Of a DNA stretch of 64,000 nucleotides, positions 62,357-63,300 are shown piece by piece. The position numbers and the translations under genes are program-made. The stretch lies in the IMG/VR virus record IMGVR_UViG_2897328257_000003, one strand, 5' to 3'. The notes below the pieces were generated by a model. It saw only the letters and a list, made by a program, of their open reading frames with translations. It was not told the DNA's origin and did no database searches. This stretch comes from a virus. Its lineage: Duplodnaviria > Heunggongvirae > Uroviricota > Caudoviricetes. Position 1 is the stretch's first letter, and each line of letters begins with the position of its first letter.

Positions 62357-62430
62357 GGGTCCTTTCCGGCATATGGACCCGTTACGGGGCGGCGACCTCG
62401 CGGATTTTCGCTATTTATGAGCCTTTTCGG
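62357..62430 (+). promoter_or_regulatory. Lambda-type cos site 1 (cosQ-cosN conserved; predicted 12-nt cohesive end GGGCGGCGACCT at 62387-62398; divergent cosB)
   Basis: acgggtcctttccgg...gttacg|gggcggcgacctcgcggattttcgctatttatga matches the lambda right-end/left-end junction as remembered; downstream cosB region differs from lambda. Confidence 0.75.
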
Positions 62431-62531
62431 GTTTGTGGTGGTGGTTTTGTTGTTCGCTCTATCTCTATGAATAAAAAGGGAAAGATAAAACCAACACACC
62501 AACCTGAAACCTTAACTAAGTGGGTATATTG

Positions 62532-63074
62532 ATGAAATCGCACCTGATGAACAAAAAAAACATGGCGAAAAGCTGCCGTGTAAGTGCGACAGCGTTCGAC
62601 AAGTGGGGAGTGACACCCGTTGAACGTAAAGGCCGTGAGGCGTTTTATGATGTTGCCAGCGTGATAGACAATAGGGTTAACAATGCAATTAGCCAGCTTA
62701 CAAACGACAAAGTCGAGATTGATGATGATGAACTCTTACGAGTCAGGATCAGATTACTGACAGCACAGGCGGAGGCGCAGGAACTTAAAAACGAGCGCGA
62801 TCGCGGTGACGTGATTGATACAGAGTTTTGCATGTACGCGCTTTCAAAACTGGCAAGTCAGATTTCTTCAATCATGGACAGCCTCCCGCTTACTATGCAA
62901 AGGAACTTCCCACAGATGCCCCCCGCTATGCTGCATGGGCTTAAGAGGGAAGTAGTTAAAGCCTGTAATGCCAGTGCCAGAGTTGCCGACAACCTCCCAC
63001 AGATACTTGCTGATTACCTGAACGAAACAACCGGAAACGTACCGGAAAAGTTGCTACAGAAGAAAGGCGAGTAA
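62532..63074 (+). CDS. Terminase small subunit, lambda Nu1-like (divergent N-terminal DNA-binding region, conserved C-terminal region)
   Basis: About 180 aa; C-terminal half resembles lambda Nu1 (LTAQAEAQELKNERDRGDVIDTEFCMYALSKLASQISSIMDSLPLTMQRNFPQ); N-terminal HTH region divergent; lies directly downstream of cos1 as in lambda. Start could be 62520, 62532 or 62547. Confidence 0.78.
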   Translation: MKSHLMNKKNMAKSCRVSATAFDKWGVTPVERKGREAFYDVASVIDNRVNNAISQLTNDKVEIDDDELLRVRIRLLTAQAEAQELKNERDRGDVIDTEFCMYALSKLASQISSIMDSLPLTMQRNFPQMPPAMLHGLKREVVKACNASARVADNLPQILADYLNETTGNVPEKLLQKKGE

Positions 63075-63300
63075 CAGACGCGCAATTATTGAACAAAAAT
63101 GAGAAAGGATCTGATAATGGCATTTTCTGGCTAAAATGCCTCGTGTCAGATCCTTTCTTTTTTTAATATTTTCATTGTTAAACAGTCTGTTACAGAGAAG
63201 AAGAACGGATCTGACTTTTGCCGGAAAATTTTCATAAACAGATAAAATCCGCGAGGTCGCCGCCCCGTAACGGGCCATAATTCCAGGAAGGACCCGACGA
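63075..63300 (-). promoter_or_regulatory. Lambda-type cos site 2 in inverted orientation, with lambda-like cosQ, cosN and cosB (R3/I1/palindrome)
   Basis: Minus-strand reading: cgggtccttcc...cgttacggggcggcgacctcgcggattttatctgtttatgaaaattttccgg...ccgttcttcttc...aaaagaaaggatctgaca...tgtcagatcctttc, colinear with lambda cos 1-190 as remembered; cosN complement AGGTCGCCGCCC at 63254-63265. Confidence 0.7.

Follow-up and report, generated by a model that had tools for sequence, protein, structure and literature searches.

The virus record IMGVR_UViG_2897328257_000003 (IMG/VR) was analysed over a stretch of 64,000 nucleotides, referred to here as the window. Near its right end two lambda-type cos sites, cos1 on the plus strand and cos2 on the minus strand, face each other across a gene for a small terminase subunit (TerS) of the Nu1 family. 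Judged by its genes and their order, the region is the DNA-packaging module of a phage-inducible chromosomal island (PICI) of the EcCICFT073 family, a cos-type phage satellite. Comparison with related islands, prophages and phages suggests that the module probably combines a private packaging site, directed by the island's own TerS (cos1), with a site native to a helper phage (cos2).

The pattern GGGTCCT-N23-GGGCGGCGACCTCGCG, which links cosQ to cosN, occurs without mismatch exactly twice, at 62357-62402 on the plus strand and 63250-63295 on the minus strand, and has no match in 100 shuffles of the sequence. At both sites the spacing from cosQ to the nick is 30 nt, as in lambda. The two cos arms form a 76-nt inverted repeat (62356-62431 and 63221-63296; 82% complementary), and a full-length Nu1-type terS lies between them. 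Two convergent cos sites around a Nu1-like gene had been proposed in an earlier reading of the sequence alone (the preliminary description), and their positions are confirmed. That description also raised the possibility that the inverted copy is a misjoin. The arrangement is not a misassembly: of 5426 complete E. coli genomes, 492 match it in its native order over at least 80% of the query. Most of the IMG/VR contigs used for comparison are proviruses predicted in isolate genomes and trimmed at one and the same predicted boundary, and their ends are thus uninformative about the ends of packaged DNA.

TerS matches the Pfam family Phage_Nu1 over its full length with 80.6 bits (cut-off 30) and is 36% identical to lambda Nu1 over residues 6-166; RefSeq records of near-identical islands place its start at the same codon (ATG at 62532). 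Its best relative among 50,697 phage records is gp1 of phage N15, at 44.6% identity, and no phage TerS in that collection is more than 60% identical to it. The relationships differ along the length of the protein. Within residues 1-50, 28 of 45 positions are identical to N15 gp1, as against 13-17 of 40 for TerS of the lambda, 21 and Gifsy types; the middle and C-terminal parts are closest to TerS of the PhiR5_1/lambda type (35/53 and 19/40), the C-terminal counts being 19/40 with PhiR5_1 and 12/41 with lambda. TerS looks like a mosaic of an N15 gp1-class DNA-binding domain and a lambda/PhiR5_1-like C-terminal half, and from the 28/45 identity with N15 gp1 its N-terminus is very likely a winged helix-turn-helix DNA-binding domain. 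The divergence of the N-terminus noted previously is real, though the domain is of a known specificity class. Lambda Nu1 binds gpA through its C-terminal part (as cited in PMC6739421). No gpA-like gene follows terS, cos2 and a gene for a protein of 93 amino acids (aa) standing there instead, and with no large terminase gene downstream of terS the large subunit (TerL) has to be supplied by a helper.

To the right of cosN, alignment of cos1 to lambda cos reveals no R3/R2/R1 set of the lambda type. The cosB of cos1 (cosB1) contains a G/T-rich R3-like element, which is conserved in all TerS-type islands and occupies the position of N15 R3 and of the R3-PICI proposed in PMC9026076. The element is a G/T triplet repeat, and by manual count 6 of its 12 positions match N15 R3 (GAGGTTGTTGTT) in register; by this likeness and its position, it appears to be related to N15 R3. 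The cosB of N15 is simple, with one critical R3 (GAGGTTGTTGTT) at bp 48-59 and a remote inverted accessory copy (PMC4669245). In cos1 an inverted partial copy of the element is present at 62487-62504, and it is a possible R2-like or rR2-like accessory site.

Linkage between cosB1 and terS is strong. Both are present at coverage of at least 80% in 763 of the 5426 E. coli genomes, cosB1 accompanies a TerS relative in 78 of 80 IMG/VR loci, and the linkage is kept in islands with another cosN (GGGCGTCAGGCG, GGGCGGAAGGCG) and where cos2 is lacking. It appears that cosN follows the large terminase of the local helper, whereas cosB1 stays with the island TerS. The cosB of cos1 and TerS would thus form a cognate, island-private pair of protein and site, with binding predicted from their co-occurrence. 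The preliminary description had recognized lambda-like cosQ and cosN with a divergent cosB at cos1 and had supposed an island-specific TerS/cosB pair; the first is correct, and the second is backed by the finding of cosB1 with terS in every island examined and by the scarcity of close phage relatives of TerS described above.

Two further observations concern cos1. The IMG/VR loci L058-L069 and L074 (at about 2830-2870) carry the same TerS and cosB1 with other cohesive ends (GGGCGGAAGGCG, GGGCGTCAGGCG and others) and have no cos2. The 9-mer GGTGGTGGT lies at 62437-62445, bp 51-59 from the cohesive end, in TerS-type cos1; its reverse complement ACCACCACC is found at bp 55-63 in Rpp-type cos1 (locus L004, about 2613-2621), where it is the stretch proposed as R3-PICI by Murialdo and Feiss. 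The same 9-mer is therefore present in opposite orientation in the two types, despite the absence of any sequence relationship between RppA and the island TerS.

On its own (minus) strand, the entire cosB of cos2 aligns colinearly with that of lambda, with R3, an I1-like block, an inverted R2, a hairpin and R1 (Table 1). cos2 is indeed more lambda-like than cos1 through cosB, as was first noted, and it abuts the 3′ end of the plus-strand Nu1 gene with no nu1 downstream in its own orientation. The core of its R elements is CAGATCC, as compared with CGTTTCC in lambda. The same cores occur in Gifsy-1 and SerU-LTIIb, and all three (R3, R2 and R1) are identical to those of a prophage cos in E. coli strain 21221, which has the lambda cosN and precedes, in the order usual for phages, a Gifsy-1-like nu1 and a gene for a large terminase. 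The TerS N-termini of the Gifsy-1-class phages and of this prophage are unlike that of the island TerS. By these matches cos2 is a complete helper-type cos of the Gifsy-1/CAGATCC lambdoid class, and its predicted compatibility with a helper rests on them.

The cos2 position is variable among closely related islands. Sister islands with the same TerS and cosB1 have there a complete cosB of the phage-21 class (GCATGTCGGTACTTC, AAGAAACGACACGG, TCATGTCGTTTCT)—a class common to PhiR5_1 and the CFT073 helper prophage—or a remnant, or nothing. Sixteen of the 80 IMG/VR loci carry a cos2 of the phage-21 class, 13 one of the Gifsy class, and six a remnant left by a deletion from the terS stop codon into cosN; the others have no cos2, or their contigs end too early. 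TerS proteins identical from residue 126 to the C-terminus are found with either cos2 class. Taken together, these comparisons indicate that cos2 is an accessory module that mirrors the specificity classes of helpers and is exchanged independently of the private pair. The deletion itself is recurrent: in L010 (3215-3260) and in L070, L071, L075 and L081-L084 the terS stop codon is joined to the middle of the cosN of cos2 (GAGTAA-CCGCCGCCCCGTAACGGG), with loss of the cosB of cos2 (cosB2) and half of the cohesive end and with retention of cosQ.

Table 1. Coordinates of the cos/terS module and adjoining genes (window positions; distances from the cohesive end in bp).
Feature	Position	Strand	Sequence, basis or remarks
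D5-type primase	57364-59196	+	Pfam
Lambda E-like major capsid protein	60856-61911	+	Pfam/homology
Lambda D-like decoration protein	61923-62258	+	Pfam/homology
Terminator-like hairpin and T run	62330-62349, T run to 62356	+	8-pair stem, 5 pairs G-C
Left repeat arm	62356-62431		cosQ, cosN and conserved stretch up to TTTATGA
cos1 cosQ	62357-62363	+	GGGTCCT; 30 nt upstream of cohesive-end sequence, as in lambda
cos1 cosN, cohesive-end 12-mer	62387-62398	+	GGGCGGCGACCT; identical to lambda left end
cosB1 G/T-rich R3-like element	62435-62454	+	GTGGTGGTGGTTTTGTTGTT; bp 49-68; conserved in all TerS-type islands
Inverted partial copy of cosB1 element	62487-62504	-	AAAACCAACACACCAACC on plus strand, TGTGTTGGTT on minus strand; 2 mismatches; conserved in island alignment
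terS, 180 aa, Nu1 family	62532-63074	+	Pfam, alignments, RefSeq name in homologous islands
cos2 R1	63102-63113	-	CAGATCCTTTCT; alignments
cos2 hairpin	63119-63140		GGCATTTTCTGGCTAAAATGCC; between R2 and R1, at position of lambda R2-R1 hairpin
cos2 R2, inverted	63147-63158	+	CAGATCCTTTCT; inverted relative to R3 and R1, as in lambda
cos2 I1-like block	63177-63192	-	TAAC..TGTTT (TAACAGACTGTTTAAC on minus strand); aligned with site I1 of lambda for integration host factor (IHF); IHF binding putative
cos2 R3	63202-63213	-	CAGATCCGTTCT; bp 53-64
Right repeat arm	63221-63296		Inverted repeat
cos2 cosN, cohesive-end 12-mer	63254-63265	-	Exact match
cos2 cosQ	63289-63295	-	Exact match
93-aa gene, last gene of island	63330-63611	+	Always after module; RefSeq/homology

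A two-cos arrangement has been published for EcCICFT073, the satellite of E. coli CFT073 (Fillol-Salom 2018 ISME J, 2019 Mol Cell; PMC6092414, PMC6739421), whose genes c1499 and c1500 encode homologues of capsid and decoration proteins (PMC6092414, PMC6739421). Both of its cos sites work on plasmids, and their cleavage by terminase in vivo is shown experimentally (PMC6092414); transfer by lambda and phi80 requires cos1, and deletion of both sites abolishes transfer (PMC6092414, PMC6739421). Its RppA protein (c1503, 144 aa) binds the helper TerS, and the complex reads the cosB of cos1 (PMC6092414, PMC6739421). In the CFT073 region (L004) rppA has a plus-strand cos1 upstream and a minus-strand cos2 downstream, with the same arms as in the window, and the cos sequences match those in Figure S1A of the EcCICFT073 paper. 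The main texts of the EcCICFT073 papers do not mention cos orientation (PMC6092414, PMC6739421), the Murialdo and Feiss analysis (PMC9026076) treats only cos1, and cos sites go unmentioned in the paper on lateral transduction (PMC12829572). EcCICFT073-type PICIs are characterised by an Rpp protein (RppA, RppB or RppC; 139-154 aa), whose place is taken in the window by the Nu1-family TerS. Assignment of its Nu1-like gene as an Rpp was considered and rejected: the protein has no detectable similarity to RppA (E = 1.3), is of full TerS length and has a C-terminal region like that of phage TerS. A search of PDB sequences with TerS, the RppC and Nu1 structures included, gave no hit. Since a TerS and not an Rpp fills the slot, the island is expected to substitute its own protein for the helper TerS, with no heterocomplex of the two.

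We propose that the two inverted cosQ-cosN arms bound a cassette of cosB1, terS and cosB2. The island TerS would bind the G/T-rich cosB1 through its N15 gp1-class winged-helix domain, and its lambda-like C-terminal half would recruit the helper large terminase, leading to a nick at the cosN of cos1 and packaging to the right. An unmodified terminase of a CAGATCC-class helper could initiate at cos2 unaided and package to the left, so that the two sites would be used in opposite directions. As termination needs cosQ and cosN in the direction of travel, a run would end only at another copy of the site from which it started. The inversion of the arms has a further consequence, in that recombination between them only flips the cassette and never deletes it, whereas direct repeats would lose or duplicate it; the opposed orientation would in this way protect the cassette from deletion. 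The scheme starts from what the sequences show, namely the anatomy and homologies of the module, a cos1 that is linked to terS, a modular cos2 and the inversions described below; which protein would bind which site, and which site would be cut, we infer from lambda biology and the EcCICFT073 experiments.

Several points weigh against the use of both sites in this manner. cos2 is dispensable: many TerS-type islands lack it or have only half a cosN of it left. A simple promoter scan revealed no convincing promoter for terS, and binding of TerS to TerL is assumed only from the resemblance of its C-terminal region to TerS of the lambda/PhiR5_1 type. Moreover, deletion of cos2 from EcCICFT073 increases transfer by lambda and phi80 (PMC6092414, PMC6739421), and cos2 can thus carry a cost, at any rate when the class of the helper does not match. 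As this gain was measured with phages whose R class does not match EcCICFT073 cos2, the cost may not hold with a matched helper. Within EcCICFT073 cos2 (L004, 3100-3260) there are three copies of ATGTCCGGTT, one direct and two inverted, at a place where the original papers report no R elements; ATGTCCGGTT resembles CATGTCGG, the R core of the 21 class in the cos of the CFT073 helper prophage (L004, from 39745).

Alternatively, cos2 might be a decaying relic of the capture of a phage cos module, with no present function, and only cos1 might matter. Consistent with this, cos2 is lacking altogether in L009 and truncated in L010 and the six IMG/VR loci with the deletion described above, islands with a non-lambda cosN never have cos2, and EcCICFT073 transfers better when cos2 is deleted. 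We nonetheless consider it unlikely, since where cos2 is present its cosQ, cosN, R3, I1-like block, R2 and R1 are all intact, with R cores that match the prophage base for base, and since TerS proteins that do not differ from residue 126 onwards are accompanied by either of two complete cos2 classes, which points to recent replacement, not decay. Retention of cos2 in about 490 genomes, the function of EcCICFT073 cos2 as a cos on plasmids and the residual transfer that it sustains after deletion of cos1 argue in the same direction. Of the two interpretations offered in the preliminary description, then, the combination of a private with a helper-compatible site is the better supported, and a mere recombination scar from module capture fits poorly with the complete cosB and with the second complete class (phage 21) in sister islands. 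A role for cos2 mainly in interference or regulation, either as a decoy that titrates the helper TerS or terminase or through its R2/R1 repeat as a terminator or operator of terS, appears very unlikely. PICIs do interfere with helper packaging (PMC6739421), cos2 has perfect helper R sites, and a 19-nt inverted repeat made by R1 and R2 lies, with a T run behind it, just past the terS stop codon; but a decoy needs only cosB, and in cos2 both cosQ and cosN are also exact at the 30-nt spacing. The R1/R2 structure is not reported by a simple terminator scan, and a helper terminase at a complete cos is expected to cut and package, which amounts to transfer.

The cassette has been inverted in some natural islands. 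The KGu016 island, which is at the CFT073 site, has the cassette (L011, 2620-3370) inverted and thus rppA on the opposite strand; the inverted segment measures 812 bp, with 99.4% identity and with end points in the arms. We searched the E. coli genomes for colinear matches to a synthetic inverted version of the window module and to the native order. Five genomes have the inverted and 492 the native form of the TerS type, and in two unrelated islands, at yejO and at tqsA (L013 and L014; 2323-3200), the annotated terS is indeed on the minus strand. For the rppA type the numbers are 15 inverted and 68 native. In L013 and L014 the exchange point lies within about 30 identical nt around cosN, and the cosQ types have been homogenised between the arms. 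The position of the crossover was considered as a means of discriminating between recombination and cutting and rejoining by terminase, and was rejected, as both predict an identical stretch around cosN and the cosQ variants are homogenised. Homologous recombination and cutting of both cosN with re-annealing fit the inversions equally well, and the data do not separate them.

These inversions bear on the view that the convergent pair is an invertible switch or exchange device, operated by recombination or by terminase cutting at both cosN. They are seen in two or more island lineages of the TerS type and in one of the rppA type, with the exchange point of L013 and L014 mapping to cosN, and unrelated cassettes (rppA or terS) are found between the same arms. 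They are rare, however, and absent from the 80 IMG/VR loci; the 15 inverted rppA islands are 99.9% identical and probably represent one clone; no invertase is present; and the identical stretch around cosN is also the expected place for an ordinary homologous crossover, with the homogenised cosQ types as gene conversion would give. Among the explanations considered we find this the least likely. A related idea starts from the geometry of the cuts. Because the sites are inverted, a fragment excised between them would have identical overhangs at both ends: cutting both cosN (62387 and 63254) would release 867 bp with the same 5′-GGGCGGCGACCT overhang at each end, able to re-anneal either way or into another island cut likewise. 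Convergent cos sites might then make cosB1-gene-cosB2 a terminase-excisable cassette, and although we think it quite unlikely, cos satellites could by this route flip and swap rppA, terS and cosB classes without recombination.

Probable use of cos1 with the island TerS and of cos2 with a helper terminase is set in an island whose other parts are only partly represented in the window. The window contains N runs at 1-36269, 43242-43252, 44213-44835 and 56434-56444 and is partly masked or composite; the cos/terS module lies within one N-free piece, 56445-64000. This piece starts inside the island, after an N run, and the int end is missing from the window; of the integrase, AlpA, primase-replicase module and dedicated att site that belong to EcCICFT073-type PICIs, the D5-type primase is present. 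A single-stranded DNA-binding protein (SSB) and a PerC-like protein are also encoded on the plus strand of the piece. All genes are on the plus strand, in the order capsid, decoration, terminator, cos1, terS, cos2 (opposite strand) and 93-aa gene, and the terminator-like hairpin and T run, identical in EcCICFT073, close the capsid/decoration operon and abut the cosQ of cos1. Near-identical DNA is present in many complete E. coli genomes, and the near-identical islands have int and sit in tqsA. In strain 2011C-3911 the homologous DNA forms the right-hand end of an island of 11 kb within tqsA, with genes for an integrase, a helix-turn-helix regulator, an Icd-like protein, a RepA helicase, SSB, capsid, decoration, a hypothetical protein and a "terminase small subunit", followed by two small genes.

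Between the decoration gene and cos1, EcCICFT073 and most of its relatives have a 414-nt c1501-like gene, sometimes annotated as a head-tail connector; an in-frame 358-bp deletion has reduced it in the window to a 14-codon remnant (62272-62316). At 41912-56433 the window contains a capsid-forming PICI (cf-PICI), with genes for an integrase, a D5-type primase, an HK97-type capsid, a prohead protease, a portal, an HNH protein and small and large terminases, the large terminase gene being at 54063-55724. The same 93-aa gene ends both this cf-PICI (55738-56019) and the cos-type island (63330-63611), and the cf-PICI copy has 88% DNA identity with the L003 homologue. In Shigella (L008, 5001-5279) it stands after a large terminase gene; a search with the protein in one genome per species gave a single locus, in Shigella, at the end of a cf-PICI. 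The protein has no Pfam match. By these occurrences the 93-aa gene is a conserved terminal gene common to two PICI lineages. An att-like sequence at the cf-PICI end (56400-56433) matches the right end of the L003 tqsA island. A tandem array of the cf-PICI and the cos island was considered and is not established, as the sequence between them is interrupted by an 11-N run (56434-56444). Close to where the island ends on the right, after the 93-aa gene, there are two 66-nt direct repeats (63604-63669 and 63737-63802; 89% identical), each followed by a 24-nt repeat, and these are present in L003 too.

Why such islands carry two cos sites is a question posed in the published Discussion of PMC6739421. 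The comparisons presented here suggest an answer, namely that one site belongs to a private pair and the other copies the complete cosB of a resident helper class. About one in seven E. coli genomes has a satellite with its own Nu1-type TerS instead of an Rpp, a second packaging strategy in the best-studied family of Gram-negative satellites. This bears on which helpers move the islands, and the defence or virulence genes that they carry, between strains, and on the origin of new packaging specificities in cos phages.

The convergent two-cos layout is already published for the family; what is new is the substitution of a TerS with an N15-class domain for Rpp, the recognition of cos2 as a canonical phage cosB of a swappable class, and the natural inversions. 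EcCICFT073 and the window module have in common the E-like capsid, the D-like decoration protein, cos1, a specificity gene, cos2 and the 93-aa gene, as well as the inverted cosQ-cosN arms, the terminator before cos1 and the idea of an island-private cosB at cos1. They differ in the slot, where the 144-aa RppA and the 180-aa full-length Nu1-type TerS have no detectable similarity, and at cos2, where the window has a canonical R3-I1-R2-R1 cosB and the EcCICFT073 authors found no phage cosB.

N15 gp1 is similar in its TerS domain (28/45), in a short G/T-rich cosB at the R3 position and in a possible inverted accessory copy further on; it is different in that overall identity is 44.6% and that its R3 is GAGGTTGTTGTT, as compared with (GGT)3-TTTGTTGTT in the window, which moreover has a cosN of the lambda type and no large terminase gene after terS. 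Gifsy-1, SerU-LTIIb and the E. coli prophages of the CAGATCC class share with cos2 the R3/R2/R1 cores, their spacing and their order. In these phages cos is followed by nu1 and A in the same direction, whereas cos2 of the window runs into the 3′ end of an opposed terS of a different specificity class.

Among satellites, TerS-S of the pac-type Staphylococcus aureus islands (SaPIs) resembles the arrangement proposed here, in that a satellite TerS with its own recognition site redirects the helper large terminase. The SaPIs use headful (pac) packaging, an unrelated TerS family and a separate protein, Ppi, to block the phage TerS; the window module is of the cos type with a Nu1-family TerS, and no equivalent of Ppi was identified in it. 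SaPIbov4, SaPIbov5 and P4, compared by description, are like the island in being satellites with a helper-type cos that are packaged by the helper terminase, and two putative cos sites in SaPIbov4 were noted by the authors of the 2018 EcCICFT073 study (PMC6092414). They belong to other phage and satellite families, and no private TerS/cosB pair is described in them beside the helper-type site, in contrast to the pairing of cos1 with terS opposite cos2 in the window.

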